A stretch of 32,340 nt of DNA from Circinaria calcarea (Eukaryota): positions 1-32,340 of the forward strand of contig JAVECS010000038.1 of assembly GCA_051942165.1 (NCBI GenBank). Reading direction: 5' to 3'. Positions 450 to 31,715 of this stretch are shown here, piece after piece; the stretch's first letter is position 1, and every line of letters begins with the position of its first letter. The notes under the pieces were generated by a model. That model saw nothing but the letters and a program-made list of their open reading frames with translations. It had not been told where the DNA came from and searched no databases. The position numbers and the translations under genes were made by a program.

Positions 450-2291
450 TTACTTCCGGGCTCTTTTGCCCTTGTTCTCTTCGGTCTGTAAGCCCGCAAG
501 CCTCCACCCATCGGCAGTCTCCTCGATCAGACCCTCCTTGTCCATCCAGTCCCGCAGGACCGTGTCTTCGTGCCAAGTCTGGGTCTCACCGTGGCCACTC
601 TCCAAATGTCGTCCGACATGCTCCATCCGGTTCTCCCACGAGCCTGGCCCCTGAAACACGCCACCTCCCCGGTTGCTGTCTGCGTGATTACAATACCCAC
701 AGACGCTGTACGTTGGCGGCTCGCGTGTGTTCTTCAAACATCGCTTGCTAGCTTGTACGAGTGAGTTAGCGAATTCCTCGTGCTCGGCTGACGAGCTCGA
801 TTCGGAGGGTGCATGCATTCGGCGGAGATGCTGAGTGAAGAGGTCCTTGCGATTGAAGTCGTTGAACGTGGGCTCCTCAACCTCCACCTTGACCGAGACC
901 GTTCGAGCTTTTCGTGAAGATCTCTCCGGGATGGCAGGGGGGAGCTTCTGTTGTGGCAGGCAAGCGCCAAGATCGCACCGCCAGATTCCGAGTCGGAGGT
1001 GTTGCGATGAGACGTGCCGTTTCCATTCGTTCTTGGAGCCAAAAGTGGCGGAGCATCCGTAGAGTCGGAATGTGCAGGTAAACGGGCGGGTGTGGGTCGT
1101 GGAGATGTGTTTCTTGAGAGCGGACTTTGTCTGCAGGGTAGCGGAGCATTGGGAGCAAGTCGTTGCAGGGTCTTTGCCTGCTGCAGAGATAGTCAACGCA
1201 GGAGCGACTTGAGTCTCTTTCGAGGGGCGCTTGACGATTCCGTTGACTGTTGAGCGCTGGCCACTCTTCGTCTTAGTTTTACCTGACCGCGCTCTTGGTG
1301 TTTGCTGGGCGCCCTTACGTTCTCCTCGATGGATGCGAGTATTTCTGATGCTGTGCCCGTGAGCTCTTCGAGTGTCTGGATTATAGTCCGAGCCGCTGTC
1401 GTTGTCTCCGTCGCTCGTGGTATCAACGTTTACGGTCATCTCCTCGTCATCGAGGGTATAGCGCGGCGCTGATCCTTCACGAGGTGCTGGAGTCGAAGCG
1501 TACGTGGGTTGATCATCACAAGTGACGATTGGCGGCAGCCTCGGCGGGCCGAGATCATTTGACGAGCATATATCTGGGGAACCATGGTCTTCCCGGAGGG
1601 CTTTGCTATCATAATCTTCCGGGTAGGTTGTATCGGGGTATTGCTGCACTTCCTGAAGAGTAATCCCAGAATTTGACCTTGGGTGTGTGAAAGACGACGA
1701 GTCGGAGAAGCACCCTCCGGATTGGACCGTGTACGACTGGGAAAATGTACCGTCCGAGTACGTACTTCCTGACGGGCAGATTGTCTCGTAGTTTTGACGT
1801 GAATGGGCATCACCTGCTTCCAATTCGAATCGATCCTCACTTGGCTCCGGACTCCAGGTGCTACCACCAGATGAGGAGCTCTGCTCACTCACACTCACCA
1901 CCCTCTCACCGAAACCGGGCGGAATGTAGCTTGGTGGTGCAATGGCAGAAGACCATGAAGCCGAGCGATGCGGATTGGCGGAGCTCGGGAAGTTCCAGTT
2001 GAAGTCTGGCCGTACAAGTCCCGGACGCCAAGGTGGCAATTCATGGGTGAGGCTCCGGTCGTGGTCGACCAGCGCAAAGCGCATATCATCCTTACCATAC
2101 CAAGGTTTCTGTGGAGTCCATGATGGAGGAGACATCCCGGGATTAAAGGCATGGAAGGCCTCGACGTTGGATGGGGAAGTCATCGAGTGCCACCCAGGGC
2201 GAAGGCGGTCCACTGTCGAGTGCATGCCCGAGACTGGCTCACAACCAAGCTCAATCGAGGGAAGATCATTGAACATGTTGATGCTCCCCAT
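450..2291 (-). CDS. C2H2 zinc-finger transcription factor (about 613 aa from the first in-frame ATG; no intron needed)
   Basis: Long ORF; the track start at 2354 is GTG and the first in-frame ATG is 2291. S/P-rich low-complexity N-terminus, then CSQC...KKHISTTH, linker TRPFTC, CTFRLYGC...FGSKNEWKRHVSSQH, WRC...FNRKDLFTQHLRRMH and CGYC...WENRMEHVGRH. Basic C-terminus KGKRARK. An additional upstream exon is possible (see findings). Confidence 0.9.
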   Translation of the reverse strand: MGSINMFNDLPSIELGCEPVSGMHSTVDRLRPGWHSMTSPSNVEAFHAFNPGMSPPSWTPQKPWYGKDDMRFALVDHDRSLTHELPPWRPGLVRPDFNWNFPSSANPHRSASWSSAIAPPSYIPPGFGERVVSVSEQSSSSGGSTWSPEPSEDRFELEAGDAHSRQNYETICPSGSTYSDGTFSQSYTVQSGGCFSDSSSFTHPRSNSGITLQEVQQYPDTTYPEDYDSKALREDHGSPDICSSNDLGPPRLPPIVTCDDQPTYASTPAPREGSAPRYTLDDEEMTVNVDTTSDGDNDSGSDYNPDTRRAHGHSIRNTRIHRGERKGAQQTPRARSGKTKTKSGQRSTVNGIVKRPSKETQVAPALTISAAGKDPATTCSQCSATLQTKSALKKHISTTHTRPFTCTFRLYGCSATFGSKNEWKRHVSSQHLRLGIWRCDLGACLPQQKLPPAIPERSSRKARTVSVKVEVEEPTFNDFNRKDLFTQHLRRMHAPSESSSSAEHEEFANSLVQASKRCLKNTREPPTYSVCGYCNHADSNRGGGVFQGPGSWENRMEHVGRHLESGHGETQTWHEDTVLRDWMDKEGLIEETADGWRLAGLQTEENKGKRARK

Positions 2292-3340: not shown

Positions 3341-3367
3341 GTTGCTGTGGCTGCTGTTGCTGCTGCT
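3341..3367 (+). repeat. Imperfect (GCT/GTT)n trinucleotide microsatellite
   Basis: gttgctgtggctgctgttgctgctgct read directly. Confidence 0.5.
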
Positions 3368-3761: not shown

Positions 3762-3786
3762 TTCCCACTTCCCACTTCCCACTTCC
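3762..3786 (+). repeat. (TTCCCAC)x3 at the end of a pyrimidine tract (about 3736-3786)
   Basis: ttttcgcttttcgcttttcttccctcttcccacttcccacttcccacttcc read directly. Confidence 0.6.
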
Positions 3787-9438: not shown

Positions 9439-9444
9439 GGGATT

Positions 9445-10692: not shown

Positions 10693-12813
10693 TCATTGCA
10701 ACTCGGAAAGAAGATGTGATGAGTCGAATCCACCATAAAACTGTGGATTATTAGAAGGGGATATTTCGAGATCGAACATTAAAGAGTCATAATTTGTATC
10801 CAGCAAATTGATACCACCATAATCTTCGTCCTCCACGTGTGAATTGTCTGTAGTCATGATTGACTGGCTTGCTCGTGTAGGCGCAGTACCGTGGCGTTGT
10901 AAGCGCGCTGTAGCTGGCGTGGACACTTCTCGAGCTATAATCGTTGCTTCCGAATTAGAGATATCGCTTGGGGTTGGCCGAAGAGTACGACACGGGATTG
11001 GCTCGAAAAAAACGGTTGGCTGCGGGGGAGGATCGTGGTTTGAATTACCGAATAAGTCAGTAATGGTAGAATGGTCTAGGTCGTCAATTTCGAAGTCCTC
11101 GACAGTCATGTTCTCGGGTACAAACTCGTCAATCTCTTTCATCCACATTTTGAGCACGTCCATCGCAGGATACTCTCCTCCACCTTTCCCACCTCGCTTT
11201 TCCTCGTTCTTACCCTTGCCCTTACGTCCCTTTTGTCGTTTGTTGAAATGTGTACGGCGCAAATGAGCAGCGGCGTTATAGTAAGCCCCATAGGTCTTTT
11301 TCTGGCGGCAAGCCTTGCAGTTTGCCAGGAAATCTTTGTTTTGTGAAACGTCAACACATATCCACACTTTACGAAGCATGCGGTGAGCACGATCAATATG
11401 CCGTTGGAGTTCGTGTGGACCCCGGAAGCCATCTGGCTTCTCGTTACATTTGGTGCATTTCACTTTCTCGTGAATTGGTCGGCTATGTGGCGTTTTTGAG
11501 ATGGGCATCACTTCCTTTATGTAACCATCCGCCGACTTGATCCGGATCATTCGATTTTCTAGCGAGGTCTGATGTGACATCGCTATCTCGTCATCGGAAA
11601 GTTTGGGGGCGATGGGCCGTGAGCTTTGCGCGATTTGCTCTAGGCGACGACGTGATGCCCGAGATTGAGAGGAGACATTGCTCTCCGAAGACGTTGATCG
11701 TCGCATCTCAAAGTCCTCCTGTGAATTCAAAGATAATGGGATGGCTGTAGGGATAACAGAAGGAAGAGATGGATTCGAATGATTGATGTTATTCGCATTA
11801 TCGTCAATGGGTAGAACAAAGTGCGAAGGGTTTGCATTCAACAGGCTGAAGCTACCAGCACTGGGTGAATCAAAAGATTGCTTGAATTTGTACGGAGATT
11901 GCTCTCCAACAAGACTCCAATCCGAAATATCAGATCTGTGAGAAGGTAGAGCCATCATGTCTATTCCTCCGCAGAGCGAGTCGCTCATCAGGCTGCTTTG
12001 ACGACTCATGTCGCTTGTGATGGTTGTCGCATTAGTTAGTCCGTCAGTTGTCGGCGTTGTTGGGGACTGAGAGCTCATGCTCATACTAAAGGAAGATGAA
12101 ACCTGGTTGGGAGATAATGATAGCCGACAAGAATTGCGACGTGGGTAGTGATTGCGAGGTATTTGCTTCGACAGGCTGTGACACCCATTACAAGAATCTT
12201 CAGTTTTACTCAGGAAATCAGCCGGATTATCGTAAACCGCGATTTCGGGGACCTGTTGAAGAAGTTGTCGGCCAGACGTAGTGCGCCGCATTTTTAATGA
12301 ATGACCTATGGATAGGTTGCTGAAAGGCTCGTCTGGGTTGGCCTGCCAATTGATAATTGGTAGCAGTGGGGATTCTTTGTCATAGCCGTTGAAGCGTATC
12401 GGTACAACGTCCATTCCAGATCCATTAGAACGCTTTCTGGACATGGGGGCCGAGTGCTGGGAAAGAGTCTGACGTCTGTCAAGCGGCCGGGAAATGGGTT
12501 GATCCTAATCCCAAATCAGTTCGAGAGGACGGCCGACACGAGGAGGATTTTGTACCGATCTTCGTCTTGAAATCAAAGGCACTGCATCGGTCCGTATAGC
12601 GTCATGTTGAATGATATTGTCTTTGAGACCTTCAAGATCGAGTCGTGGCACCGGAGGTGTAATGCTCAGTGCGGAATTTAATTGGGCCGCTCTGGATGCC
12701 CAACGACGCTGCCGTTCTTCTATTGGGAGGTGAGCCAGCTGAGTCCAGAGGGTTTCCTTCTCGAGGTGTAGTAGATTTAACAAGGTATCTTGAGCGCCGC
12801 TAGGGGCTGCCAT
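10693..12813 (-). CDS. KLAP1-like (key lime anthracnose pathogenicity protein-like) atypical zinc-finger regulator, about 689 aa; exons 12813-12556 and 12504-10693
   Basis: ORFs 12505-12813 and 10693-12444 are in the same frame and are joined by a 51-nt intron (GTACAA..ACTGAT..TAG, 12555-12505). Domain CTKCNEKPDGFRGPHELQRHIDRAH..KVWIC..CKAC..KTYGAYYNAAAHLRRTHF..KRGGKGGG..P..VLKMWM matches my recollection of the Colletotrichum KLAP1 family (not database-verified). Confidence 0.85.
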
Positions 12814-12949: not shown

Positions 12950-15114
12950 CGGCAATCAACGACGATATTTAACAGAAGACGAGAGCTTGAAAGGCGAGGC
13001 AGTGAATGGCAAGAAAAACGGTTAGGAGGATGCTTGGGAAGGTGCCTGGGTGGATAGAAGATAAAGGTGATGGAAGAAGAGTGCGCCTACATGTCCGGTG
13101 AGGGTGTAGGCAACACGAAGGTGTAAGCGGTCTCTGCCCTCTTGAGGCATTTGTGATAGGCACTTCTCCTTCCCCCACCTCGACGCCCAATTTGGCCGGG
13201 TCTTCCACCGGTCGGGTGCTGTTGCGTGAACCATGAGCAAACAGTGAGGCAACCAATAGACGATCTATTCGAGGTTTCGCAGGATTTCATGTTTTGCCAA
13301 GCTAGCTTTCGTACGACGTATTGTTGAATTCTTGGCATCGCCGGACTCCACAAATCCGCTGCAGTTGCACTTGGGAGACTGAGGAGCTAGTGAAATGTAA
13401 AAGGGGGTCTTGTACTCCGTAAACTACAGGGTCATGCCTTTACACACGTTTTCCACCGCCCCCTAGTCTCCAATCCGTGGCACTGCTTCCCGGGCCACAC
13501 CCACTAATGCCGCTGTGCATGATTACACTCCATTCACGCCCACGTCCTGGGCGGACGGGGCAACAAGTAAGACGCGCAACAACGCTACTCGTATCTCAGG
13601 AGCCACATGGTCCGTCTCAAGCCTCCACCGTTTAACTTTTGTGGAGAGAGTGCTTGGCAGAACCGACGGCTTTACAGGTGAAGCGACATCTTTGCCCTTT
13701 GGGAATAAGGAGTACAGCTGGCTGGAACCACGTATTCTAGCTGTCAACCGAGAAACTAGGGTCTCCGTCAACGGATTCTTAATCGAAACCAGCTAACCGA
13801 TGGACCTATTGCGTCTATCTCCGGTAAGGAGGAGCGCCAGTAGGAATCAAATTTGTCCCTTGTCCCTTGAATCCATTTATCAGCAGCTCCAAACTATCTG
13901 GGCACCTGAAGGTCTACCACTCATTGTTCAGCGCCTATGGATTTGGGAGGCTCAAGGATGGAACATTCAGAGATTTGGCTTTGCCTTTCCGTACTCTCGA
14001 TTGAGCATTTATTAATAGTCCCAGTGTTCTTTCCCAGCTGCTTCTAAGAGGGAACTAAGTATAGGGAGTTTCCAGAGGGTTCTATCAATAATAAAGACTT
14101 GCTGCTCCCCTAGAAAAATTTAATCTCGTTGCCTTATGAAGGTCCTGAGGACTGTGTGCTCTCTATAGATGGGCTGGCCCAGAAACCCCAGTGCCATTTT
14201 CTCAGGGTGCGGCCTTCATGCCAAGATAGGACCATTCGGGTCTGCATCTGCGTCTGCGTCTGCCCTCCCCAAGGAAACTTCCTTCTCGTCCTGCGACGAA
14301 TGCAGAACTGTCCTCCCGTAGAGGGCGATATCTGGCATGTCTTGATGCGGTTGTCCTACTAAGGCTCTTTGACCAATGGAAGGATGCCGACCATCCACGT
14401 CGAGAAATAGTTAACTGGAGGAAGTTTCCGTCATTTACAGCTGGTAGTCTAGGATTGCGAATGAGTGGATGAGCAACTTTAGGAACGTGAGCCTATTGCC
14501 GGCGGCCACGACCTGGATATCTCCCTTCACGCTTCAAGCGCAACGGCAATCCCCATAACCTTGATGAAAACGGCAAAGTGCATGAGTTATTGGCCTTTCT
14601 ATTCTTTTTCCTTTCTCAACCTTTCTATGGAGTAGACTTGCCATTATCTTCGCTCCGGCACTGTAGTGAGCTGTACTCTTGGATGCAGCCCTTGTCACTC
14701 CTGTGGGAATAGCATCGTCAGTTCATTTGACCACTCGTCAAATATGGATCAAAGATCGGGATGTGAGAGAGACTTGGATCGTGACTAAATGCTGGGCTTC
14801 CGACTTGGCAGACAGGAGGACTTCTGGGACGGGTTCGAGTCATCGCAACCGTATCGATAGTCTATATTTTTACAGTGAAAGCAATCGATGGAAGGCAGTC
14901 TCTCAGAGCTTCACTGCGCAAATCTTCGAAAGGGATAAAGTGACTGTTAGACTCATGCCCATGGTGTCTAAGCTTCAGCCCTGCCAAGCCTGGGAGAACT
15001 TGACAGCTAAAGGTATTGTTCTCGTCTCGTCTGAGAACGATGATAGTCGGAAGGCGCAACAGCACACCTGGATAATTGGTGAAGCTCTCTTTTACCTCTC
15101 TTTGGTCTTTCGGT

Positions 15115-18846: not shown

Positions 18847-21800
18847 ATGCCGTTTCCCTACACGGCGGCTGCTGCATCCGTGCGCCACCGTCGAGTGAAG
18901 GATAAGGATAGTCGGGGTGTCAGCGCGAGTTCTAGTAGCAGGCGTCAAAGAGATGTTTCTCGGGTGAACGACAATCGATCACCAGCACCGAATCATCGCA
19001 GTCCACGATCATCAATATATTCTCAACAGAATATCACATTAGACCAACTACCTCCTCTGCCATCTTCCGGAACAGTGTCACCGTCTTCTGCAGCATCGCC
19101 GACTCTGCAACCAACTCAATTGACCGCGGCTTCAACGGGCATCTTTCATTTGGCACACCCACCCCACACGCCTGCAGCTCTCCAGGCATACCTCGACGAT
19201 GAGCCCGATTCTAACCCCAATGTCGATACGTCGCCCATAGACGTTCAAGACGAGACCGCTATTCCCCTTTATAGTCAGAGAAACCAACCTGAGTCGCCAG
19301 TTCCACGGTCATACCCAGAGGCGCCTCCATCCTCTCCGCTAAATCCGTTGCATCAAACCACCGAGGATAACTTGCCGCAAACGCCATCTCAGGCCCACTC
19401 CCTCGAGATACCTGTTCAAGGCTTCGTGCAATCCTCTCCCCGACTGTTCTCCCCAACTCCTCTCTCTCCCGGGCCACCGTACTTGGCTGGTCCGTCGGCA
19501 TCTGTGCCTGCTGGACCTTGGCAGGGCGGATACCCAAAAGACCATTTCTTCACTTCTCCCTACGCACGACCACCGATCTACGGGATGGTGCAACCCAGTG
19601 CTCTTACAGGAGAGGGGCAGCAGTATCCGGTACAGCCGATGCCTTACTTCGCAGAATATGGATCACCCTATCCTGTTCCTACCGCATATGGCAACCCGCG
19701 AGGGCTCCCCATTCATGGATACGCGATGCCTACAAGGTCAAGCATTTCCGGTTATCCATCAGTATCGGCATCACAGGCACCTATAGACCCTACCGAACCA
19801 GCAGGTCACGAGGTAACGGTGCCAAGCAGCCAGGGATCAGATGATGGTGCTGGAGAGCTATTACATCGTATACAGAGTGCGATTCCTGATTTACATCTTC
19901 TTCTGAATCGTTACCGAGAAACTTCCGGCCAACTCGGCATCCGAGAGGATTTGATGCGACAATCAGAAACACAGAAAGCTGAAGCATTAAGACAGAAGGA
20001 GACATGTATCGACCGACTGGGCAAGGAATTGGAGTCCGCCTCGCAGAAACACTCCGCCGAGAGTAGTAAGCTCCGGTTGGAAATCGGGAACTTGGAGGAA
20101 AAGCATAGGGAACTACAGGATGAAGTGATTGCGAAGAAGAAATCGAGGGACCGGCTAGAAGCAGCTAATCAAACACTGCTAAAGGAAACAGACTTGTTGG
20201 AGAAGCGTCACTCAGAAGCATTGGAGGCTGCGACAAACAACTATAAGCAGTGGAAGGATGAAGTTTCCGCAGAGTATGAGTTGAAAGAGAAGGTGACCAA
20301 AGAGGAGCTTCAACGCAAAGCTAAAGCTGCAGTAAATTTACAAACCAAAATTATGGACAAAGACAGCAGTCATATGAAGGAGCGCGAATACTTAAAGGCG
20401 ACTTGGGCCAGGGAGAGAAAAGAGATTGAGATCAATCATGATAGCCTCAGAAAAGATATGGAAGAAGCACTCCGTACATGCCGTAAAGATCTCGAAGAGT
20501 CGGAACGTAAGGAGCGTGAAGGCCGAGAAGCTTGGGAGAGCGAACGTCAAGCCTCGAACCAACAATGGGACGAAGAACGGATCCGGCTCAGTATGGGATG
20601 GGAAGAGCAGCTGAAAATACTGGAGGCCCGACACCTAGAGGACAAGGAGAATATGCAGAAAAACTGGGATATTGCCCAAGAACAGTCAAAGAAACAAAAA
20701 GACGAGGAAAACGTCGAGCTACGGAAGGAAATCGAAAGACTCAAGCTCGCTTGGGACAGGGACAAGATCAAACTTACTAACACGGCAAGGGATTTGGGCA
20801 CATTGACTGCTAAATTGACTGATGAGAATAGTAGTTTGAAGAAGATGGTGGATGCTTTTGGGGAAGCAACTGACTTCAGGAGTCGGGGAGACGCGTACTT
20901 GTAAGTTGACTGTATAGACGTTCTGTCTTTGGTCCCTAAAACTGCGCTTCGCAATGTCATTGTAAGTACGCGAGTACTTCATATGATTTGGGTACCGGTG
21001 ACTGCCTCAATTCCGAGAGAGACTGACTTCGCTTCCGAATGGCAGTATTGCTGCATTCACCAAGCTGCGCAACGAGATCTCAGCGCTTGCCATGGAACGC
21101 TGCAAAGGCGCAATGGGGCGGACTCCGGAAAAACTCCTCATGGAAATACCTGCAGATATTCCCGATTTCCTTGCAGATAGCCCTGCGTCGATTCAGCTGC
21201 GGGCCGCTTACGTACAACATACTATATCCCGAATCCTCTCTTACCGAATCTTTCAGCCATTCTTGTTCACTTTGAGCCGTCGGCATGAAGCAGCCGATCG
21301 TCTCTTTCAGGCGATGTCGCAGAAGCTTCGGCACGACTCCTTTAGACGTGAAGCCTTTTGGCGACAACAAACATTACACGCGGCTTATACTGTGTCTAGC
21401 GCTAAACAATCCATCAACAAGATCGCCGCGGTCATTGTAGAAGAGATCATGGAAGAGCTTCAATATTTGACATGCCCGAATGAACGGGAGCAGACCAAAA
21501 TAGCTATCAGGAGAATAGTGAAGCTCAGTGCAGAGTCCTGGCGTTATGCAAGGTAAGCCGAATGGAGTGCTCTAACGTTTCGACATACAATGCTCACACG
21601 GGCAGATTGGAGAGGGAGATGATTACGGCATCGATGCCGTCTGTACAACACCCTTCCGTGCTTGGTGTAGGTGCCTATGATGGCGCTTTGACCTCGAATA
21701 CTGGGGCTCAAGATGCTTCACCGCGTGTTATCCTCCCACTGCTTCCTCACATTTCGCGAGAGCCGACACATCAAAACTCCATTGCAGACTCGAACAGAGT

Positions 21801-22245
21801 CGATCCAGGATGCATGTATTCTCGGGGAGACGTCCTCTACTCCAATAGTGCCATAGTCATGGCTCGCTTGGCGGAAATCAAACAGGCAAGCAAAAGCGCT
21901 ACAGATCTAAGAACAAGAGAGTCACTCCACTTCCCAGAAGACATCACAGCGAACCAGAACAGTGAGTTTGAGAGTACCAAGGACCGTTCTAGATCCCCGA
22001 TAGACAACGGTCTGTCGCCAGTGAAAGCAGAGGCTGTGGTTGAGGAAGGCGGTATCAATGCTCCGGGCAGGGATGCATTTAGTGAAATCGAGGTGGCCAA
22101 GGACTCTCCGGATAGGACAGGCATACGATCCAACGGGTCCGGTCACCGCCAACCACATCCGGTAGGACTATCACCTCCAGCTCAAGCAATACCCAAATGG
22201 GCCGAATCATCAGGGATAATCTCACCCGAGAGCACTAAATGGTAG
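18847..22245 (+). CDS. Uncharacterised coiled-coil protein, about 1066 aa; exons 18847-20900, 21046-21552, 21606-22245
   Basis: P/S/Y-rich N-terminus, motif LLHRIQSAIPDLHLLLNRYRETSGQL, a long E/K/R-rich coiled coil, then a helical domain (RAAYVQHTISRIL..RIFQPFLF..REAFWRQQTLHAAY..SAESWRYARLERE). Introns 20901-21045 (GTAAGT..ACTGAC..CAG) and 21553-21605 (GTAAGC..CAG) join three track ORFs in frame. Confidence 0.88.
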
Positions 22246-23545
22246 GATGTTGTTGGTACTACTGTAGGTTAGTCGTTTTATACCCCAGAACGGGGGCGCA
22301 TGCGTTGAAAGTGTAATGGCGTCTTGATACACGGTATAGAATATGAATGCTCCAATCACCGGTTCACCGTGGAACCTACACTTCACCCGTACTGTAGACG
22401 CATCCCAGACTCCAGTCCAAGCCATTCCACCGTGTCTCTGACGGTATTGGGCTCCGCATGGACTGACAGATTCCCAAGCCACCCTGCCAGTGCATGGCTT
22501 GGCGGATCAAGGCACGGAGTCGGCGTCATATCTCGTCGAGGCAGATTACCGTGGGAGTGATGCGAAGACCCAGGGCCCTATTCCTAGGCATCCTTCCACA
22601 CCAAATCCCATCCGCAGTTCGCCTTGGCGGTTTGGCGCGCTCGCTTCGAGGGCGCGGGGAGAGCACCCTGCCGGCTTCATGACGGCACGCCAGGCCGCCA
22701 TGAGACTAAAAGCGGGCTAGAAATCAGATCATCCGGTTCTCCTCCCGATGATGATTCAAGGTATGATACGATGCCCGTACCAAACCGTATTATCCAGCCT
22801 CAGCCTCAACCTCAGCTTTCACCGGCTCGAGGCGTCTTATCATTATTATTAATGAGCTCGACTGCTTGCTCAATCCTCCCGCGGTCGACATAACGACATT
22901 CTTCTCCCTCGTCCCCGTCCCCGTCCAAGGGAAGTCTCGTTTCTGCGGCGCGTCAGGTTTCGGATCCAGTTGGACGTCAACTGTCGACTGTCCACATCGG
23001 GAATCCATTTTCCTCGGGAGCGTGAGAGCCTCACCGTCAGCCTGCCTTCTGCTTGCCGCTCTAGCTTCACCTCTCCCGGTCCCAAGGCGCAATCTGCAAC
23101 CAGGCGTAGCCTTCACACATTGTCGCATCAACTCTCGTCCTCTCTGCTGCTATTGCTCTCACCATCGTCTCCATCGTTGCAATTACGACGTGCTTCCTGC
23201 AGTCTTCGCTGGTTTGCATTGTTTCTGACGTCGTCTTAACATCGTGTTCGCGATTGAATTGCTTCGGACCCACTTGCACGACTTGAGCTTAATCGCATTA
23301 CCTCCACCGCGCTCTCATCCGCGTCTTGCACTCGCAACCGAACCATGAGCAGTTGAGATCCATGGACTGCCTCTCGGCGTAAACCGGCCTCGAATTTGAG
23401 CATATTATGCATAACATGCCACGACTGATCACATCCAAAATTGCCATATACAGAGTTCCAGCTCCCCCTCTCGCCTGATACATTATTGATCGCCTTCCTT
23501 TTCGCGTACTGTCTATCGTAGCCAAGCTCGAACAGCCTCCTAACG

Positions 23546-26500
23546 ATGTCAATCATTTCGACACTTCCAAGCGGTGAATTCACAAATCGCTCTCCTTCCT
23601 CCAATAGACAAAGACTCCACGGCACTTTCCTCCCGTTGTCGCCGAGCGCGGAGCATTCTATACCACTATACGGACACGGGCACTCACAAGAGTCTTACGA
23701 GTACTATTCATCGCCTTCTGTCGGCTCGACGAATCATGTGAGTGCCAAGCTGGGAGGATCCGAAGTTTCACCACGTCCGACTATGTACGAAGCAGTAGAG
23801 TTTGAAGACGAAGGGGTTACTCGGCAGCACGGTTACAAGTTCCCACCGCAGAGTGCGGCAGAGATCTCGACAGAGTCATCATACACGAATGGAACAGCAC
23901 CATCATACAATGGTATGAGCCCCGCCGATACTTACACTTCGGAATATGAGGTCAATGGATTGAATGACTTTGTTGGGCCTGATTTTGACGACAACAACTT
24001 CCTTCTTGAAGCCGACTTCGGTCCCTTGAGTCTTCCAGGCGATCAAATCGAGGCAGGGCCGTTCGGAGGTCCTGCAAGACACCCCGTGCAAGAGCAAATC
24101 AACACCATACACGGTTCCAGTGACATGAGTTGTATTACCCCACCGCGTTCATCAGATAAAACGCTACAATCTTCGCACTTGATGAGTCCGGGGTTGACGG
24201 ATAATACCAGTCCCGAGTCTGGATATGCGGCAAAGACTCCGGTTACAAGGATACGATTGCTAGGAGGGGGGACCATGAGCAGGGTCTCCTCTCAGAGTAC
24301 CAGCATTGAACCAAACCATTCTCTATATCAGTGCACGCCTGCTTTGACAACTAGCTCCGTGGAGGCCAGTCCTGAACCATCGAGTGTGCCGGACAAGGGG
24401 CGCATCGCTAGCCCTGTTGTGCGCATCGAAAGATATAGTAGAGGAGATTCTCCTGCCAGGGCGGCGGGGTCAATGCTCCGTAACTCAAGTAAGCGGAGCC
24501 GAACAAGTCGATCCTCGTGCCACCTGGCCGCACCGAATGATGATTCGTCAGACGAAGACCATTATCGCAGTTATGGTGATGATCGAAGCAGACCTGTTTT
24601 AGGCTTGGACCTTTCCGTAGCCTCGGATGAGCTTGATCAGGTATCCGGTCAACGATCGGGTTTGGATCCTGTGATGAGATCGCAGATGACTGATACTATA
24701 GTGCCAAACTTCAAGGACCAAGACGAGATAAACGAGCAGAATGCAAGAGAAGCAGTTGTGCGAGATTGGTTGTCACAAAGCGCGGGTCCGCATGAAGGCC
24801 GTGTTGTTACTCCAGGTTCCCTTGGTATACGCAAGGACAAAGCTTGTGGGTCCCGGCGAAGGGCCAGAAGCGCTGGTGATCATTGCGGCCTGCAGCTAGA
24901 TGGCCTCGAAATCAACAGCCCAAAATTAGTCCACGCAGAGCGCCAAGTCCCTGGGCCTGGATTACTCTTAAATGAGGACAGCGGTGAGGAAGAAGACGAG
25001 GGTGTTGGCGATGTCCCTCCAACTCCTCCCGTAAGTAACGATAGGATAGAGGAAGAGAATGAGCCGGCCGGTGGTTACTTTGCTGATCCAGATTGGGAGT
25101 CTAAGCCAGCTCTTGAAGCATCCCCGTGGGCGGACCCGATCTATTTCCCATCAAAAATGGGTTCGAGAGGCCAACCAGCTACTGCAAATGCCGCTATAGC
25201 GTTCTTCCGCAAGAAGGCAGCGGATATCGAGACCATATCTCGTAGGGCGACTTGCGGTACAAGTGTCCGGAGACTCAGTGAAACTGATTTGGACAGAGTA
25301 CTCGGACCTGAAGGCCTACTTTCCCGCTTCTCGATATCCAGAGACAAGATCATGGAGAAAATCGACAGCCATGGCAGTTCTTTAGCCTCAAAGATTCTTC
25401 TTAAACGGAGTATAAGCAACACGAAACGGAAATCGAGCGAGCCGACATGGCCGCAGTCAGAGCAGAGCTTACCAGCTAACAGTGGTCGAAAAGAAAGTCT
25501 TCATGGAAGAAAAGAGAGTTCTCACGAAAGGAAAGACAGTTTACAGGGCAGGAAAGAGAGTCTTGGGAGTCGACCGGAAATTCCAGCGGTCTCGAGCAGT
25601 CCACGGCGTATCCCTAGCCTTAACAAACGACCAAAGTCTCCGAGCCTCAATACTAGTAGCACGATGGTTGCGATGACTAGTCATATCGCTTCTCTAGGAG
25701 GGCACGGCTCCATCAGCCCGACGGCTACCTCGCCCCCCACAGGTGCTTGGAATACTGCTCGAACCCTCATACGCCGGAGAAGTCGGGGTGATTCTAACCG
25801 ACCTTCGATGAGCAATACAGCGGAGTCAGGGCTTGCCGCTCTATGGACCAAGCAGGGGGGACCACCCCTGCCCACACTGGCTACGCCCCCTGAAGGACGG
25901 GATAGCGTAGCGCTATTTGAAGCACCAGCAGATGACGACGAAGCTGCTGAGACAGATGATCTGCCAAACGAACACGGCACCTCGATGGACTTCACTCCGC
26001 GTAAAGATAAGATCACTCCTACCAAGGACGGCTTTAAGGCCAATGTGGGAGATCTCAATCCTCGGCTGGCGCCATATCTGGTAGAGCGCCTTGGACAAGA
26101 ACAATTGCGACGTTTTAAAAAACTGGTTGAGTTTAGAGTTGGTCACATCCAAGCGATACAGGATGGTGTCTGCAGCTCAGGCAAACGTTGCATAGAACTT
26201 GGTGGCGAGCCATCCTATCTGGGTTCAAAGGCAGGCAAGAAGGAAACCGAGTTGTCTCATACAGGATTCTCTGTTACTAGGGTGGAGAAGTCTGACCTAG
26301 ATGCTAATGCGCTTCCTGAAGGCGTCGTTACCGCTGCGCAGTTTCCGCCGGGCGTCCCTCTACCTCCCGTTCATCGCTTGCCTGCAGAATTCGAATGTCC
26401 TCTATGTTTTACAATCAAAAAGATACAGAAACCTTCGGATTGGTCGAAACATGTGCACGAGGATCTTCAGCCCTTTACGTGCACTTTCCCGGATTGCTCG

Positions 26501-27637
26501 GAGCCCAAGTCATTTAAACGCAAGGCGGACTGGGTCAGACACGAAAATGAGAGGCATAGACAGCTTGAATGGTGGAATTGTAGCATGCCTGAGTGCCAGC
26601 ATAAATGCTATCGAAGGGACAACTTCGTTCAGCATCTTGTTCGGGAGCACAAGTTAACAGAACCTAACGCGAAATGCACCAGATCCAACAAACCAGCCGT
26701 CCGAGGGCCTGCCAAGAGTAAACTCCGAGCGAAAGGGGTTGTCGAGAACCGCACGTCCGAGGATGAGGTTTTAGCCTTGGTCGCTAGTTGTCGACATGAG
26801 ACGCCGAAGCTACCGAAAGGTGAGCCGTGCAGGTTTTGCGGAAATGTCTGCAACAGTTGGAAGAAGCTCACGGTGCATCTTGCCAAGCACATGGAACAAA
26901 TCAGCATACCAGTCTTGGATTTAGTTCAGCAGCTGGATGTAAGTCCGGATACAATCATCAGCCCTATTGAACAGTCAAACGTCACAAACGTACCTCCGGC
27001 GGCCGAGGACCAATCCGTCAGCCGGGGCTCGGTCAGTGTGTCACCGCTATATGATAGGTCTATGGATATGTCCCACGTCAAGGAAGAGTTACCGCCTTCC
27101 TTCAACCCCCTGCAAGCTACAGCGATTTTTCATTCTCCTAATGAGAACCAATCCCCAGGTACCTTCCAGTGGGGCCAGAGCTCTGAGGCTCAAGCTGGAG
27201 ATTCAATGGGTTATGTTCAAGGCCTTAACACCGACTATCCTCCCTCCTATACAGCATACGACCCTCCTGGAGCGGCACCATTCCAAGCGGGGAACTCTCA
27301 GTTAAACCACCTGCACACGGTTCCTGGGCCTGGCGCAAGGTCAATGTATACGGGGCTACGGGGCCAGGTTTCCCACATGAGGCATGTCTCCTATCCCGAA
27401 AACCAGCCGTTCTCTATGGGAATGAGTCAAATTCCAATATCATCGGCCCCACTAGAAGGCCCTTTCTTTGCCAATCCAAATAATTTTTCCGCCTCGCAGC
27501 CACCGCAGTTGCCCGCTCATATGGCGATCCCATCCCACCTTGGCTCGAGACCGGACACCGGGTTTCCGCAGGGCCAGAATAATCTCAATAACATTTACCA
27601 GGATCAAAGTCAGCAATACTACCCATATGCAATGTAG
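23546..27637 (+). CDS. Large C2H2 zinc-finger protein, 1363 aa, single exon
   Basis: Uninterrupted ORF. Fingers ECPLC..KPSDWSKHVHED, PFTCTFPDC..FKRKADWVRHENERH, WWNCSMPEC..CYRRDNFVQHLVREH and CRFC..SWKKLTVHLAKHME. Long S/P-rich N-terminus and Q/P-rich C-terminus. Confidence 0.93.
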   Translation: MSIISTLPSGEFTNRSPSSNRQRLHGTFLPLSPSAEHSIPLYGHGHSQESYEYYSSPSVGSTNHVSAKLGGSEVSPRPTMYEAVEFEDEGVTRQHGYKFPPQSAAEISTESSYTNGTAPSYNGMSPADTYTSEYEVNGLNDFVGPDFDDNNFLLEADFGPLSLPGDQIEAGPFGGPARHPVQEQINTIHGSSDMSCITPPRSSDKTLQSSHLMSPGLTDNTSPESGYAAKTPVTRIRLLGGGTMSRVSSQSTSIEPNHSLYQCTPALTTSSVEASPEPSSVPDKGRIASPVVRIERYSRGDSPARAAGSMLRNSSKRSRTSRSSCHLAAPNDDSSDEDHYRSYGDDRSRPVLGLDLSVASDELDQVSGQRSGLDPVMRSQMTDTIVPNFKDQDEINEQNAREAVVRDWLSQSAGPHEGRVVTPGSLGIRKDKACGSRRRARSAGDHCGLQLDGLEINSPKLVHAERQVPGPGLLLNEDSGEEEDEGVGDVPPTPPVSNDRIEEENEPAGGYFADPDWESKPALEASPWADPIYFPSKMGSRGQPATANAAIAFFRKKAADIETISRRATCGTSVRRLSETDLDRVLGPEGLLSRFSISRDKIMEKIDSHGSSLASKILLKRSISNTKRKSSEPTWPQSEQSLPANSGRKESLHGRKESSHERKDSLQGRKESLGSRPEIPAVSSSPRRIPSLNKRPKSPSLNTSSTMVAMTSHIASLGGHGSISPTATSPPTGAWNTARTLIRRRSRGDSNRPSMSNTAESGLAALWTKQGGPPLPTLATPPEGRDSVALFEAPADDDEAAETDDLPNEHGTSMDFTPRKDKITPTKDGFKANVGDLNPRLAPYLVERLGQEQLRRFKKLVEFRVGHIQAIQDGVCSSGKRCIELGGEPSYLGSKAGKKETELSHTGFSVTRVEKSDLDANALPEGVVTAAQFPPGVPLPPVHRLPAEFECPLCFTIKKIQKPSDWSKHVHEDLQPFTCTFPDCSEPKSFKRKADWVRHENERHRQLEWWNCSMPECQHKCYRRDNFVQHLVREHKLTEPNAKCTRSNKPAVRGPAKSKLRAKGVVENRTSEDEVLALVASCRHETPKLPKGEPCRFCGNVCNSWKKLTVHLAKHMEQISIPVLDLVQQLDVSPDTIISPIEQSNVTNVPPAAEDQSVSRGSVSVSPLYDRSMDMSHVKEELPPSFNPLQATAIFHSPNENQSPGTFQWGQSSEAQAGDSMGYVQGLNTDYPPSYTAYDPPGAAPFQAGNSQLNHLHTVPGPGARSMYTGLRGQVSHMRHVSYPENQPFSMGMSQIPISSAPLEGPFFANPNNFSASQPPQLPAHMAIPSHLGSRPDTGFPQGQNNLNNIYQDQSQQYYPYAM
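25484..25567 (+). repeat. Coding 21-bp / 7-aa tandem repeat x4 (GRKESLH GRKESSH ERKDSLQ GRKESLG)
   Basis: Seen in the translation; synonymous codons differ between copies. Confidence 0.85.
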
Positions 27638-28718
27638 TTGTTTTGCTGATTGGCACAACGCCTGCGCTGTTGTTCCCGTCCACTGGACGGCTATTGTTGT
27701 CAAGCCCGAGATTCGGACTCACCTCGTGCCCGGTTCACGCCCGGGTCACACCCTTACTTACTTTCGGCGTCGCTGGAAGTAGCATCTTTGTGATGATCGG
27801 CACGTTCTTTTCAACGGTCTCGAATGTTGTATACATGCTTTACGGGAATGGATCTAGTCATTTTCTATGGGATATGGCACAGAACGGCACGGCTCTTACG
27901 GCTGTATGATTTACGGTTTAAATATTGTAGTAGTTTGGAACATGAAAGGCGGTGTCCGGTTGCAATCATATCTTACAAGCAGGACATTTACATTGTCGAG
28001 TTAATATCAGTGCCGGTCGTAGGATAGAATCGTGCTTGGTAGAGCCGGATTGCAGTGGACGGTTGGAAGCTTATTAGACTATAGTACGTCCAGCTTGCCT
28101 CCGGATCCGACATAGTTGATCTTTGATCCCAAGGGGGTCTTGCATATACGATCTGGCGACTCTGCACCGACACTGGAGCAGTCCATTTCGCTGCCCGACG
28201 GTGGGAGGGCGAAGGCTCTCAGCTCGTCTTTAAGCGAGCGAGTCAAACGGCACCGGTCGAGGGGGGCCATTTCGCCTCACTTTTCGCACAGGAGGGTGAG
28301 AGGTACCGTAAGCATCTAACAGAACATTGGATAAGAAGCACCATGCCTCACTCTGCTTTGTCGGACCTTACCCACCACATGCGAATCTCAACAGCCGCTG
28401 ACGCAGACCGCACTCATCCACCACTCGACACTCGATAGTGCCCGCTACCCTGACGGCGAGACCCATCATCTTCGCACAGCCGCTCCGCTCTTCCAGTCTC
28501 GAAGCTCAGCCTGACCTTCTAGAAAAACCCCTTCCCCCCGTCCATGCGGCTCTTCAGGCAGTGCCCGCTGGGCTCATTCCACCACGCTGTCTAGCTATTA
28601 GAGCACCCTCTTCTCCTATCTATGCCTATTCGCCACCTCTACTGCTGTTGCCTGATGCTGGAAACCATGTTCGAGTCAAACACACGTGACCGAGATTGAG
28701 GCTGGATAGCTCGTCACA

Positions 28719-31715
28719 ATGGATCTTTCGAACCCGCCTTACGGGCCTTCTGCCTACCTCTACAGAGAGCCACATGTAGGATCCCGGCTCGTCTACAGCA
28801 TTTCAGTTGGTGCTATTGTCATCCGCTGACCAGGTTTTGATGCACAGTCGCAGCGGAACCATAGCAACGAACATGTGTCGTCTAGATCCCAAAGAGAAAC
28901 ATTCAACCAGGGCAAGATGGGCCCTCCAGCTCCAATACCTATAGACCCGTCCTTGGTACAATGCACTCATAACCACCATTCCGCCTACTATTCTCACAGA
29001 GGTTCTTCAAACCAGGATTTCCGGATTGAGCACAGACATCAGGGAAGGTCCTTGCTATCAGAGAATCCCGGGGGATTGGATGCTGTTCCTATAGGTGTCT
29101 TGGAGCCCAGAACTGGAGATCCGGAGTCGAATCCGCTGCTTCGTTTCTGGAACGAGGATGGACCATGGAATCCGCAAGGTCTCGGAGGGGGAGGCCTGGG
29201 GCAACCCCCCACCTTTCCGCATGCAATTTCCCACGAACGGAGTAAAAGATCTCATCCTTCTCATAGGCAATATGGGCATTCCGTTGTTGGGACAGCGCTT
29301 GAAAGACGTTTTCTAGGAAGGCAGTTGTCAGATTCAGGATACGGAACCCAGAGTCATGTTACCGGTTCTGTCTTTAGTAGAGACTATGATGACCAGATTC
29401 CAGAGAACCAAAGCCTTGCGAGTGATACTGACAGAGCCCATGCACAATTGGAGAATGTGCCGCCCGACCATCTCCATGAAGCCTCGGAGGAGGCTCAACC
29501 ATTGCCCTTTGACAACTGCAGCGATGGTCCTAGAGAACCGGGTACCTTGATTTCACTGACCTGTGACTATTCAGACTGTGGTGCAACGTTGAAGACCCAA
29601 TCGGAGTATAGGTACTCATCCTAAGTTGCTAGCCTATTAGCCTTGGCTAATTCTTTCTTCTGTTCAGGAAGCACCGCCAACGCCATGAAAAGCTATTTGT
29701 ATGTCAAGAACGTGATTGCACGAGGCAGCAGAAGGGTTTCAGTACCAAGAACGACTTGGAAAGACACAAAAAGAGCGTACACAAAATAACACCCACAAAC
29801 ATTACTGACAAGAGCTTTCAATGCCGGGGCCTCAACTGCACCAAACGAAATAAGATTTGGCCGCGTCTAGACAATTTCCGCTCGCACGGAAAACGTGTTC
29901 ACAAAGATGAAGATCTTGAGGATCTTGTCAGAAAGTGAGTGAGCAGCTCATGTGTGTTTTGCGTTAACATGCTCATACATTACAGGTCAGAGATTGACAA
30001 TAACGTAACGCCCATTCACGATGAGGTGCGTTATCGAGCATCTTCGCATCCAGCTGGACCGCCCAGCGCACGAAAGGGCTTAAATGACAATCACGGGGCT
30101 AGTGCCGAAGGAGCATCTCCCGGGGAACATTCATTACATGAAGGCACAAGAGAACCGGTGATACCTGGTACAGGCACAGCCAAAACAACACAGCTGCCTG
30201 TGATTGCTCCATTCGACGGAATGACCCCTGCCATTGATAGTAGATTAGACGTAGACGATGCCAGGCATCCCGAGGAGCCAAGATATCTGACACGAAAACG
30301 ATATTCTGCGCACTCTCCACTCACCGTGACGTCTACTCAACCAGTGTTTGAAGCAAATGAATTGACTTCATCGCGTAAGGTACCACAGCAGTACATATCT
30401 CTTTTTCAATCAACGACGGACGCTGCAGCCGCAAATCTCTCTCAATCAACACCATCGTCTAGAGTTCATGTTCCGTCAGCAGGAAAGCGGGTCTCTGGAA
30501 TCCAGGCAGAACAGTTATCGAAAGCCATATCGGCTGATATCAATCAGTACATGAACCAGCCGCTTTCGGAGGAGATGCAGACTATGATTCGGAATCGAGT
30601 CTTGGGCCTCCTTAACCCGTCTGGTTTCAGCAAACGTACCGTCGAAGACGCCAGTTTAGATAGCCCACCGGAACCTCCAGGGAAGCGAGTTGCTTGCAGC
30701 ATATGCCCCAAGACAATGGGGCGTCCCTGCGATATCAAGTAAGCCTTCCGAGTGCCAGACAGATTCTCTCTCACCAGCAGAGCTGATAACATGTCTAGGA
30801 AGCACGAAAAGCGCCATCGTCGCCCCTACGGTTGCACGTATGCCACCTGTACTAAAGCCTTCGGCAGCAAGAATGATTGGAAACGGCATGAGAACTCTCA
30901 GCACTACCAGCTCGAGACATGGCGTTGTCACGAGCCGAACCCTCGGAGCAAAATCAATCAATGCGCAAGGATCTTTTATCGGCGAGACCCGTTTCACGCC
31001 CACCTGCGAAAGGACCATCATATCACAGACGAAGAGTATATCCGGGATCAATGCAAGCGCGGCCGAATTGGGCGAAATGGGCAAAGTGGCTTCTGGTGCG
31101 GGTTCTGCAAAAAGGTTGTGACGCTGGAGAAGAGGGGCCTGGAGGCTTGGGACGAACGGTTTAACCATATCGACGATGAGCACTTTAAGCAGGGCCGGCG
31201 CATTGAAGATTGGTATCCGCCGGACAAGGACATCCCGAAAGGCTCACTTAGGACGGAAAATATACTGGACAGTGGAGGCCCGCCGACCGCTTTGGACGGA
31301 TCCGAGGACGAGGACAGCGGCGGCGAACCGCCATGCAATGAGAGCAATGCAACGCGGGCAACGGTCCCACAGAAGCCTCAAAAAGTTCTGCTTGCGCCTG
31401 TAGCCACACTTTCGGCTCCTCGACAGCGCGAGACCCCTCACGATGTCGAAAATGGCCATGCTATTGAAACGTCGCGATCGAACAAAAGGCAGAAAACTTC
31501 CACCGGGTTCGAATGGTACTGTGTAAGCGCAATCCCTTCAACCTCAACCTCCGAACCTATTCTCCTGAAATGATGTCGTTTTACTAATTGGAATGCGTGT
31601 ATTTTAGTGCAAATGCAAAATGGGACCGCATAATGCCCACATTGTAGTCTCCTGCTGGGGAGAATCATGTAATGAACACCGAATCTGCACGCATTGTCAG
31701 GTAGTTATGTATTAA
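28719..31715 (+). CDS. Multi-C2H2 zinc-finger protein with a C-terminal Cys-rich module, about 890 aa; exons 28719-28775, 28848-29611, 29668-29934, 29986-30738, 30799-31522, 31608-31715
   Basis: Five GT-AG introns give one 2673-nt frame. Array 1: CDYSDC..EYRKHRQRH, CQERDC..GFSTKNDLERHKKSVH, CRGLNC..WPRLDNFRSHGKRVH. Array 2: CSIC..CDIKKHEKRH, CTYATC..FGSKNDWKRHENSQH, WRC..C..FYRRDPFHAHLRKDH, WCGFC..WDERFNHIDDEH. Tail WYCCKCKMGPHN..C..C..H..C..C. Exon 1 is the least certain. Confidence 0.9.

Follow-up and report, generated by a model that had tools for sequence, protein, structure and literature searches.

Several genes for atypical C2H2 zinc-finger proteins lie close together on one short contig of Circinaria calcarea, raising the question of whether they form an old family that has stayed physically linked, and if so, which genes belong to it. 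The stretch analyzed here (hereafter the window) is this contig of a lichen-forming Lecanoromycete, 32,340 nucleotides long. An initial annotation, made from the sequence alone, had proposed an ancient, physically retained cluster of paralogous C2H2 regulators comprising four of its eight genes. We find this description to hold for three genes, named A, B and C: according to their orthologues, the module tree and the recurrence of B–C adjacency in 21 of 25 lineages, they are probably ancient paralogues of one C2H2 family, linked since before the filamentous ascomycete classes diverged. It does not extend to the KLAP1-like gene. Our literature search found no publication on the A/B/C cluster. 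The features are as follows.

450..2291, minus strand: gene A, one ORF for a C2H2 protein (613 aa with the ATG at 2291 as start; ORF and translation)
555..1169, minus strand: finger module of gene A (family HMM, 161 bits at 567-1115; alignments)
10693..12444, minus strand: KLAP1-like gene with DUF7896 (ORF 10693-12504; PF25438, E 6.6e-30)
14670..17790, plus strand: STT3 oligosaccharyltransferase gene, several exons, main exon 15654-17477 (PF02516, E 9e-105)
18847..22245, plus strand: coiled-coil gene, upstream neighbour of B (ORFs 18847-20904, 21002-21556 and 21562-22245)
23546..27637, plus strand: gene B (ORF of 1363 aa; gene model of 1284 aa in the protein collection)
26378..26920, plus strand: finger module of gene B (family HMM, 148 bits; alignment)
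28719..31715, plus strand: gene C (DNA reading and stop-to-stop ORFs)
29612-29667, 29935-29985, 30739-30798 and 31523-31607, plus strand: introns of gene C (read from DNA)
29570..29917, plus strand: Cn, the N-terminal finger set of C (family HMM, 28.7 bits at 29666-29917, profile positions 1-79)
30695..31237, plus strand: C-terminal finger module of C (family HMM, 179 bits; alignment)
31608..31715, plus strand: last small exon of gene C, with a Cys-rich tail, CxC...C...C..C

A finger module common to genes A, B and C

BLASTP comparisons showed that A, B and C are significantly alike in the finger module alone. Pairwise identity of 22–41% was confined to the module, with scores of 47 bits for A–B (E 3e-9), 55 bits for A–C (E 8e-13) and 63 bits for B–C (E 4e-15), and the three-way alignment of the modules contains 27 invariant columns. 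All other segments gave E > 0.5, in agreement with the earlier observation that there is no likeness outside the fingers. A family HMM built from 26 modules of A, B and C type matched the six-frame ORFs of the window at four places only: A, B and two in C. Together with the BLASTP values, the scores of 148–179 bits for the three full modules confirm that these genes carry the same ordered module, and all motif strings quoted in the initial annotation are present in the translations at the places given there. The fourth match, Cn, is a second, weaker copy of the module core that was absent from that description; the Cn-C architecture was found in 184 of 486 proteins examined.

In each of the three genes, the order is a leading finger, a Trp finger with H-x4-H spacing, a 'WxC' finger and, at the end, a finger with a long loop; the WxC finger of A carries a long insert. 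By translations and alignments, finger 2 of A, B and C fits C-x2-5-C-x12-H-x3-5-H plus a conserved aromatic residue, and its Trp, at the usual Leu position, is invariant in all 26 modules. The loops of finger 3 are longer and variable. At helix core position +4, where an aliphatic residue (Leu or other) was looked for, all three genes have Trp in finger 2 and Phe in finger 3. None of the modules reached the Pfam zf-C2H2 (PF00096) cut-off of 25.2 bits, with 20.7 bits for B, 14.9 for A and 12.2 for C. The helix likeness SKN[DE]WKRH is limited to one finger, and common DNA targets, as suggested in the initial annotation, would be one possible reading of it.

Orientation and intron content differ between the genes, as had been described: A lies on the minus strand and B and C on the plus strand, and A and B are single ORFs, whereas C contains four to five introns. 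Gene C starts either at 28719, with an extra intron at 28776-28847, or at 28917, and the leading finger of its C-terminal module is interrupted by the intron at 30739-30798.

The KLAP1-like gene had been counted as a fourth, more distant family member, and this was not borne out in three comparisons. BLASTP of its ORF against gene C gave E 0.46, the family HMM did not match it at E ≤ 1e-3, and hhalign against the module returned a probability of 2.4% over 17 columns. The same ORF scored 103.5 bits against PF25438 (cut-off 25), covering profile positions 2-83 of 83, and thus carries DUF7896; 'KLAP1-like', which refers to KLAP1 of Colletotrichum acutatum, is the label of the initial annotation. 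Since this gene, unlike A, B and C, has no detectable relation to the finger module, the cluster comprises three of the roughly eight genes instead of four. Within Lecanoromycetes the gene stays in synteny, four of the metagenome loci described below (L007, L008, L012 and L015) having it at their left end.

Relation to known zinc-finger proteins

Profile searches matched the module to solved finger arrays, namely WT1 (E 5.8e-10), GLI (E 6.8e-9), TFIIIA (E 3.1e-8) and also Zif268. For the AlphaFold model of the B module (pLDDT 80.9, pTM 0.66), the top Foldseek matches were TFIIIA, CTCF, Klf4, WT1 and GLI, all DNA-bound tandem finger arrays; these matches were weak (best E 1.3e-3, TM 0.2–0.3), with none at E ≤ 1e-3. 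Because of this likeness to DNA-binding C2H2 arrays, we infer that A, B and C are transcription factors. The module and the classical arrays (WT1, EGR1/Zif268, GLI, TFIIIA and CTCF) have in common the C..C..H..H ligands, the P(F/Y)xC linker between fingers 1 and 2 and, in the predicted structure, units of a beta-hairpin plus helix. The differences are considerable. Where classical arrays have a core Leu, the module has Trp or Phe, and its histidines show H-x4-H spacing. Finger 3 opens directly with WxC in place of a canonical linker; its Cys–Cys or Cys–helix loop varies, reaching about 40 residues in A, and finger 4 lies 40–70 residues off and has a long loop. Unlike the classical arrays, the modules match Pfam zf-C2H2 below threshold only.

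Gene B belongs to a named Pfam family. PF26082.1, zf-C2H2_AcuF according to the Atlas, is present in the precomputed annotation of 120/120 gene B matches listed, including the window's own model, and PF26082 is found on 81–94% of members in the Atlas clusters of gene B relatives; the assignment rests on this precomputed annotation, our own hmmscan having been silent, presumably owing to an older Pfam copy. The B module is 65–98% identical to those of the other 119 relatives listed. PF26082 was missing from the precomputed annotation of the 120 C-type and the 120 A-type proteins listed, and among the three linked orthogroups the family is thus limited to gene B. The Atlas clusters for gene A are Ascomycota C2H2 proteins without a common Pfam family. 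In some lichens, a second B-like gene has C-type N-terminal fingers within the same gene model.

Linkage across ascomycete classes

Profile searches found 2454 proteins for A, 1541 for B (E ≤ 1e-3) and 1175 for C. A-type orthologues occur in Lecanoromycetes and Pleosporales. Among the matches listed, named C orthologues come from Dothideo-, Leotio-, Eurotio-, Lecanoro-, Candelario-, Geoglosso-, Coniocybo- and Sordariomycetes, the class assignment having been checked for six species. The duplications are old, since separate orthologues of A, B and C exist in several classes. In a tree of 73 modules, which is based on a short alignment of 122 columns and a quick search, A, B, C and Cn group separately, with the class order repeated inside the groups; the split of A+C+Cn from B has a support of 98, and the Cn group one of 97. 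The earlier statement that the genes are not recent tandem copies is thus upheld by the separate orthogroups and tree groups.

We then compared the surroundings of B orthologues in 80 metagenome loci, which fall into 51 lineages. Of the 25 lineages with at least 5 kb of flank downstream of the B module, 21 have C there, 20 of them with C on the B strand, the two modules being 3.3–4.9 kb apart. C was additionally seen in three lineages with shorter flanks; counted by locus, it is present in 28 of 36. The lineages with the pair include Lecanoromycetes, Dothideomycetes and Eurotiomycetes (Eurotiales and Chaetothyriales), showing that the linkage recurs in other classes. The class evidence consists of C modules 84–87% identical to those of Parastagonospora and Phaeosphaeriaceae, a C module 86% identical to that of Thermoascus, and B proteins sharing a 90% cluster with Thermoascus aurantiacus (L049) or Lithohypha guttulata (L064). 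Lineages 13, 24, 28, 32, 36, 41 and 42 have C but obtained no class from the C module, and lineage 36 was placed via its B protein. Named genomes also contain the pair: a 2132 aa protein of Pyrenophora seminiperda is a merged B+C model, and in Lambiella B and C carry the locus tags 007955 and 007954. In 3/5 lichens named in both lists of matches, B and C are on different, short contigs.

C is missing within 10 kb downstream of B in four lineages (the lichen fungi 3 and 6, and 43 and 44, which were assigned to no class), and in lineage 1 it is missing in locus L003 and inverted in three other loci. On its outer sides, before B and after C, the pair has different neighbours in different classes, while B–C itself stays the same; this is an internal control, in which the pair is compared with its own outer neighbours. 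That B and C are direct neighbours in very different moulds and lichens suggests that something keeps the pair together.

Two unrelated genes accompany the pair. STT3 precedes B in the lichen lineages; in Dothideomycete lineages it follows C. The coiled-coil gene matched no Pfam family. Its part at 21002-21556 precedes B in Lecanoromycete loci, in L049 and L066 (both Eurotiomycetes) and also in L023 and L054. Both genes are part of the same block, which appears to rearrange slowly.

Gene A is linked to B–C more loosely, and its side and strand vary. It was found inside the fetched flank, at most 10 kb from B, in six lineages, and within 10 kb in 5/19 lineages having at least 9 kb on either side of B. 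Among the lichens named in the lists of both A and B matches, the locus tags of A are 4–9 from those of B in 6/10, and A is on a different contig from B in 4/10. A gene model of the Sordariomycete Phyllachora maydis contains Cn, C and A in one. The linkage of A is kept in Lecanoromycetes and Dothideomycetes.

Possible origins of the linkage

Chance could account for the locus if the module were so common that three copies per 32 kb are expected. The wider family is indeed sizeable, with 9774 representative proteins at E ≤ 1e-3, and other proteins contain extra AcuF-like modules. However, only 2477 (E ≤ 1e-10) or 848 (E ≤ 1e-30) of 1.84 billion representatives were found at stricter thresholds, and across the longest loci of the 51 lineages, one per lineage and together 724 kb, all family-HMM matches except one lay in A, B or C orthologues. 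Nor does chance predict that the same three orthogroups come together again in other classes, and we regard it as very improbable. Even less credible is a recent tandem duplication in this lineage, which would agree with the closeness of the genes and their common module; it is already contradicted by the identity of 22–41% in the module only, the unlike intron structures, and the genes' own orthologues in other classes and separate tree groups.

A more serious competitor, though clearly the less favoured one, is that ancient paralogues have been retained passively, their linkage being functionless in a slowly rearranging region and the pair surviving because a gap of just about 1.3 kb separates B from C. 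STT3 and the coiled-coil gene, neither with an obvious connection to the finger genes, are likewise kept near B/C across classes; since these non-regulators are retained too, the linkage may partly reflect a slowly rearranging neighbourhood and not selection on regulators. A has moved and flipped repeatedly, and the pair is broken in 4/25 lineages that still have B. Passive retention sits less well with the change of the outer genes by class while B–C strand and spacing (3.3–4.9 kb) are kept in 20/25 lineages from three classes. Gene order between filamentous ascomycete classes is, moreover, reportedly scrambled in general, and the C-type fingers in the second B-like lichen gene hint that the two parts belong together. 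The modules might also be zinc-finger scaffolds for protein or RNA contacts instead of DNA-binding units, in which case the genes would not be transcription factors. In line with this, B falls into zf-C2H2_AcuF, whose name-giving protein is annotated as an oxidoreductase; the core Trp, H-x4-H spacing, long loops and near-invariant B module are odd for simple DNA-reading fingers, and the pTM of 0.66 hints at fingers packed into one unit rather than strung out like beads. Against it, the best sequence and fold matches are the DNA-bound arrays WT1, GLI, TFIIIA, CTCF and Klf4, and base-contacting helix positions are conserved inside each orthogroup. We therefore consider the scaffold explanation rather unlikely.

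Under the favoured explanation, an old linkage of three paralogues, local duplication would have produced an ancestral order B→C→A on one strand. The A, B and C proteins would use the finger array to bind DNA and so regulate transcription. The initial annotation saw a possible role in development or host interaction; our analysis yielded nothing for or against such a role. A cis constraint might keep B→C, for example if control sequences of C lie in or beside B or if the pair is co-regulated. The Hox, NK and Iroquois clusters of animals are paralogous regulator clusters kept by synteny. The A/B/C block may be likened to them in that paralogues of one domain type, predating the groups compared, stay adjacent in fixed orientation; the likeness would concern synteny only, and collinear or shared regulation is not part of the match. 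Unlike those clusters, the block comprises two to three genes only, is of another domain type, and contains the unrelated STT3 and coiled-coil genes.

Similar Cys-rich tails to that encoded by the last exon of gene C occur in 18 of the 184 Cn-C gene models, and many tblastn matches to C end at the same intron, right after 'YC'. RNA contigs of a close relative, from one metatranscriptome, cover parts of B and C, and in one of them the intron at 30739-30798 of C is seen spliced.

Gene models and the shared finger module

The window is a complete contig of 32,340 bases from a lichen-forming Lecanoromycete, and the closest named relatives of its gene B, among the matches listed, belong to Schaereria, Xylographa, Lambiella and Trapelia. 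ORFs and Pfam scans gave the following map, in which A, B and C are the three linked C2H2 finger-module genes and Cn is the N-terminal finger set of C.

Genes and features of the window
450–2291, minus strand: gene A (ORF)
between gene A and the DUF7896 gene in map order: small unassigned ORFs
10693–12444, minus strand: DUF7896 gene, initially called KLAP1-like (ORF and Pfam)
about 14.7–17.8 kb (14670–17790), plus strand: STT3 (ORF and Pfam)
18847–22245, plus strand: coiled-coil gene (ORF)
23546–27637, plus strand: gene B (ORF)
28719–31715, plus strand: gene C (read from the DNA)
29570–29917, plus strand: Cn, a second, N-terminal set of three fingers in gene C (family HMM, 28.7 bits at 29666–29917)
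29612–29667, 29935–29985, 30739–30798 and 31523–31607, plus strand: introns of gene C (DNA reading)
31608–31715, plus strand: last exon of gene C, encoding a Cys-rich tail (CxC...C...C..C)

The motif strings quoted for the module in the initial annotation were all present in the translations, and BLASTP agreed with its statement that the similarity among A, B and C is restricted to the fingers (A–B, E 3e-9; A–C, E 8e-13; B–C, E 4e-15). In a three-way alignment 27 columns were invariant, among them every zinc ligand and the finger-2 Trp. We trained a family HMM (alignment A5) on 26 A, B and C modules taken from the window and related loci. Among the six-frame ORFs of the window it matched gene A (161 bits), gene B (148 bits) and the C-terminal module of gene C (179 bits), with no match beyond these and Cn. 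The latter is a weak match to the core of the same module, and the Cn–C architecture occurs in 184 of 486 proteins, suggesting an ancient internal duplication or fusion.

The family had been proposed to comprise four genes, the fourth being the KLAP1-like gene, which encodes a DUF7896 protein (Pfam E 6.6e-30). It gave no match to the family HMM among the window's six-frame ORFs, its BLASTP comparison with C reached only E 0.46, and hhalign against the family profile returned a probability of 2.4% over 17 columns. By these three measures the family holds for A, B and C but not for the KLAP1-like gene, which at the sequence level is unrelated to the module.

Several traits of this C2H2 finger array are atypical. 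The core position of a C2H2 finger is usually Leu; here it is Trp in finger 2 and Phe in finger 3, with H-x4-H spacing. Finger 3 begins with WxC and has a variable loop, and finger 4 is distant, with a long loop. Pfam scans of A, B and C yielded nothing beyond generic finger matches, and the module scores below the threshold of zf-C2H2. Searched against solved structures, the family profile matched 47 sequences at E <= 0.01, the DNA-binding fingers of WT1 (E 5.8e-10), GLI, TFIIIA and Zif268 among them. An AlphaFold model of the B module (pLDDT 80.9, pTM 0.66) showed four hairpin–helix units, and its best fold matches, none at E <= 1e-3, were the DNA-bound arrays of TFIIIA, CTCF, Klf4, WT1 and GLI. 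Helix positions −1, 2, 3 and 6 were read by the Zif268 convention. In finger 2 they are S, N, D/E and R in A and C, and R, A, D and R in B; in finger 3, positions −1 and 2 are R and D in all three genes. These residues are invariant or nearly so inside each orthogroup, and it is plausible that the fingers of A, B and C read related DNA sites.

The ORF of gene B encodes 1363 amino acids and the collection model from the same contig (P0003) 1284, so that the start or an intron was called differently. Gene C starts either at 28719, with one extra short intron, or at 28917. The intron at 30739–30798 interrupts the leading finger of its module. A contig from a biocrust metatranscriptome (X1) begins at 30799, and its 11 unmatched letters are the final 11 of the preceding exon (30728–30738), indicating that this intron is spliced in RNA; because the contig is 90–99% like the window, its source is a close relative. 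Further X1 contigs cover portions of B and C (23000–32000), and such a relative thus transcribes both genes in biocrust. No X1 contig bridges the B–C spacer of about 1.3 kb. A DNA run (X2) contained nothing that aligned to the window, and the small word share of X1 and X2 was uninformative on habitat.

The Cys-rich tail of C was present in only 18 of the 184 Cn–C gene models of the collection. Many tblastn matches end at the conserved intron 31523–31607, right behind 'YC', suggesting that the last exon is often missed; many public C gene models probably lack it.

Three orthogroups in a family of moderate size

A, B and C each represent a separate orthogroup. Of 1671 candidate proteins, the B profile matched 1541 at E <= 1e-3; 119 listed relatives, besides the window's own model, are 65–98% identical in the module, which is among the most conserved finger modules in this analysis. 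All 120 listed B proteins carry PF26082.1 (Atlas name zf-C2H2_AcuF), and PF26082 is absent from the 120 listed A and the 120 listed C proteins. The C profile matched 1175 proteins among 3278 candidates, and named matches among those listed come from Dothideo-, Leotio-, Eurotio-, Lecanoro-, Candelario-, Geoglosso-, Coniocybo- and Sordariomycetes, class placements that we checked for six species and in part presume for the others. The A profile matched 2454 proteins among 5175 candidates, the named ones among those listed being from Lecanoromycetes and Pleosporales; the Atlas assigned A no family.

In a quick tree search over 73 modules and 122 columns, the modules grouped by gene, with A, B, C and Cn each on its own. 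C was set off by one branch (support 84), Cn had support 97, B together with three long-branch extra modules 98, and A with one long-branch row 92; the split between A+C+Cn and B had support 98. The order of classes recurs within the groups. With a short alignment and an arbitrary root, the tree indicates that the groups are old and separate without placing the duplications in sequence.

We then asked how common the module is. The longest locus of each of 51 lineages, fetched around B orthologues in metagenomes, gave 724 kb of flanks, in which the family HMM made 107 matches; by position, all but one sit in A, B or C orthologues. Among 1.84 billion representative proteins, the number matching the family profile was 848 at E <= 1e-30, rising to 2477 at E <= 1e-10 and to 9774 at E <= 1e-3, and the best 150 listed were of A, B or C type save for a few proteins with extra modules. 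These counts point to a family of moderate size, not common enough for three copies to be expected in 32 kb. The joint recurrence of the same three orthogroups is a stronger argument against chance than the counts.

The single exception in the flanks is a small two-finger gene of the style 'W.C ... F.R.D...H', about 2 kb downstream of C in a Dothideomycete lineage (lineage 9):

L026, 19636–19953, plus strand: two-finger gene (31–32 bits, family HMM)
L028, 19586–19807, plus strand: two-finger gene (31–32 bits, family HMM)

One 90% cluster joined Trichophyton C2H2 proteins with 54-aa DUF397 proteins of Micromonospora, most likely a clustering artefact and not biology.

The type of finger domain is already known, and B lies in a curated Pfam family. 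Searches of open-access article texts found nothing on B–C–A linkage or on the three orthogroups, and neither did passages of PMC8396895 and PMC3730340. As far as we found, all three are widespread, strongly conserved and uncharacterised in the literature.

Linkage of B and C and their changing neighbours

Scanning metagenome contigs with the B alignment confirmed 154 places, of which 80 were retained as loci, each with flanks of up to 10 kb; grouping at >= 95% nucleotide identity in the B module gave 51 lineages, and neighbours were called by tblastn with the window proteins. Twenty-five lineages had downstream flanks that ran 5 kb or more beyond the B module. A C orthologue lay 3.3–4.9 kb downstream of the module in 21 of them, and in 20 of these 21 it was on the same strand as B in all loci. 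Counted by locus, C was present in 28 of 36. C was also found in three more lineages with shorter flanks. It was not within 10 kb in lineages 3, 6, 43 and 44, and in lineage 1 it was inverted in three loci and absent from a fourth, L003. The last matches L001 and L006 at 97% identity as far as ~14.8 kb, a point 1.6 kb beyond the B module, and diverges from there on, through a polymorphism between strains or species, the insertion of a repeat or a break in the assembly.

The best named C matches were Lecanoromycetes for lineages 1, 2, 4, 7 and 14, Dothideomycetes for lineages 9, 12, 15, 16, 18, 19, 20 and 21 (with identities such as 87% for Parastagonospora and 84% for a Phaeosphaeriaceae species), and Eurotiomycetes for lineages 25 (Thermoascus, 86%) and 38 (Paecilomyces, 60%). 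Those of lineages 13, 24, 28, 32, 41 and 42 were just 37–50% identical and gave no class, and lineages 43–51, which lack C, were likewise not placed. By exact look-up, the B protein of L049 shares a 90% cluster with Thermoascus aurantiacus and that of L064 with Lithohypha guttulata (Chaetothyriales); ORF products of L072, L073, L074, L077, L079, L054 and L023 returned no organism names. In annotated genomes, B and C are consecutive locus tags in Lambiella insularis, three tags apart in a Caloplaca-like species, and on separate short contigs in three Teloschistaceae. Gene order in filamentous ascomycetes is mostly scrambled between classes, so a same-strand pair whose order and spacing persist across lichens, black yeasts, Eurotiales and Pleosporales stands out.

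The outer neighbours of B and C vary by class, and the pair stays constant. STT3 is upstream of B in lichen lineages; in five Dothideomycete lineages it directly follows C. A conserved part of the coiled-coil gene precedes B in lichens, in two Eurotiomycete loci (L049 and L066) and in L023 and L054. The DUF7896 gene was found in lichen loci only. This change of outer neighbours against a constant B–C is the sole internal control for the linkage. Non-regulator genes sit within the same block. STT3 was within 10 kb of B–C in two classes, on opposite sides (L022, L032, L033, L038, L041 and L053).

An A orthologue lay inside the fetched flank in six lineages (4, 7, 14, 15, 18 and 27). In two it followed C without a change of strand, in one it was downstream but inverted, and in three it was upstream and inverted. 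Where at least 9 kb was available on both sides, A was present in 5 of 19 lineages. Ten lichens were named in both the A and the B lists; in six, the two genes are 4–9 locus tags apart on a contig of the same length, in agreement with the window, and in four they are on different contigs. A minus-strand ORF of L026 (3–956) was considered as an A orthologue, gave no BLASTP match to A and was excluded from the counts.

Merged gene models also bear on adjacency. A 2132-aa protein of Pyrenophora seminiperda (P0041) is a merged B–Cn–C model, and a 1060-aa protein of Phyllachora maydis (Sordariomycetes; P0198) carries the Cn, C and A modules in order, so that C and A adjoin on one strand there. Such mergers by gene predictors are evidence of adjacency, but they make the annotations unreliable. 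Collectively, the data support a tight B–C core with A as a looser member. The proposal of an ancient retained cluster is supported for A, B and C, with B followed by C in 21 of 25 lineages and in three classes, and loses the KLAP1-like gene.

Possible constraint on the locus

B, C and, more loosely, A might form an ancient ascomycete regulator cluster in which B and C are coupled in cis and the trio cross-regulates; in this complete form, we consider the reading rather unlikely. The cluster would have been present in the common ancestor of Eurotio-, Lecanoro-, Dothideo- and Sordariomycetes, if not earlier. B and C, arranged head to tail, would be kept together by shared cis-regulation or coupled transcription, the paralogous arrays, with near-identical contact residues in fingers 2 and 3, would read related DNA sites, and the trio would act as one cross-regulating module. 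By analogy, it would be a small fungal counterpart of animal homeobox clusters. PMC3730340, which does not mention this locus, reports that Aspergillus C2H2 genes tend toward large, conserved upstream regions, which would fit a constraint in cis.

B–C offers a testable case of gene-order constraint beyond metabolic clusters and mating-type loci, and the locus allows separation, deletion and swapping in model moulds with expression and binding as readouts. If the linkage is passive, the three named orthogroups are still a useful annotation, and the corrected C gene models with their missed last exon remain, as does the warning about predictor mergers.

A second B-like gene was seen in some lichen fungi (P0534, Ptychographa xylographoides, 1005 aa; P0531, Heterodermia aff. 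obscurata, 913 aa; P0471; P0453; P0482); it was not among the 80 loci. It shares about 50% identity with B across the module region, and the same model continues with N-terminal fingers of C type that reach 56% identity to exon 3 of C. Either the two parts are truly fused, or the model merges a duplicated B–C pair; as a natural fusion, it would hint at the same coupling. Ptychographa has an ordinary B as well.
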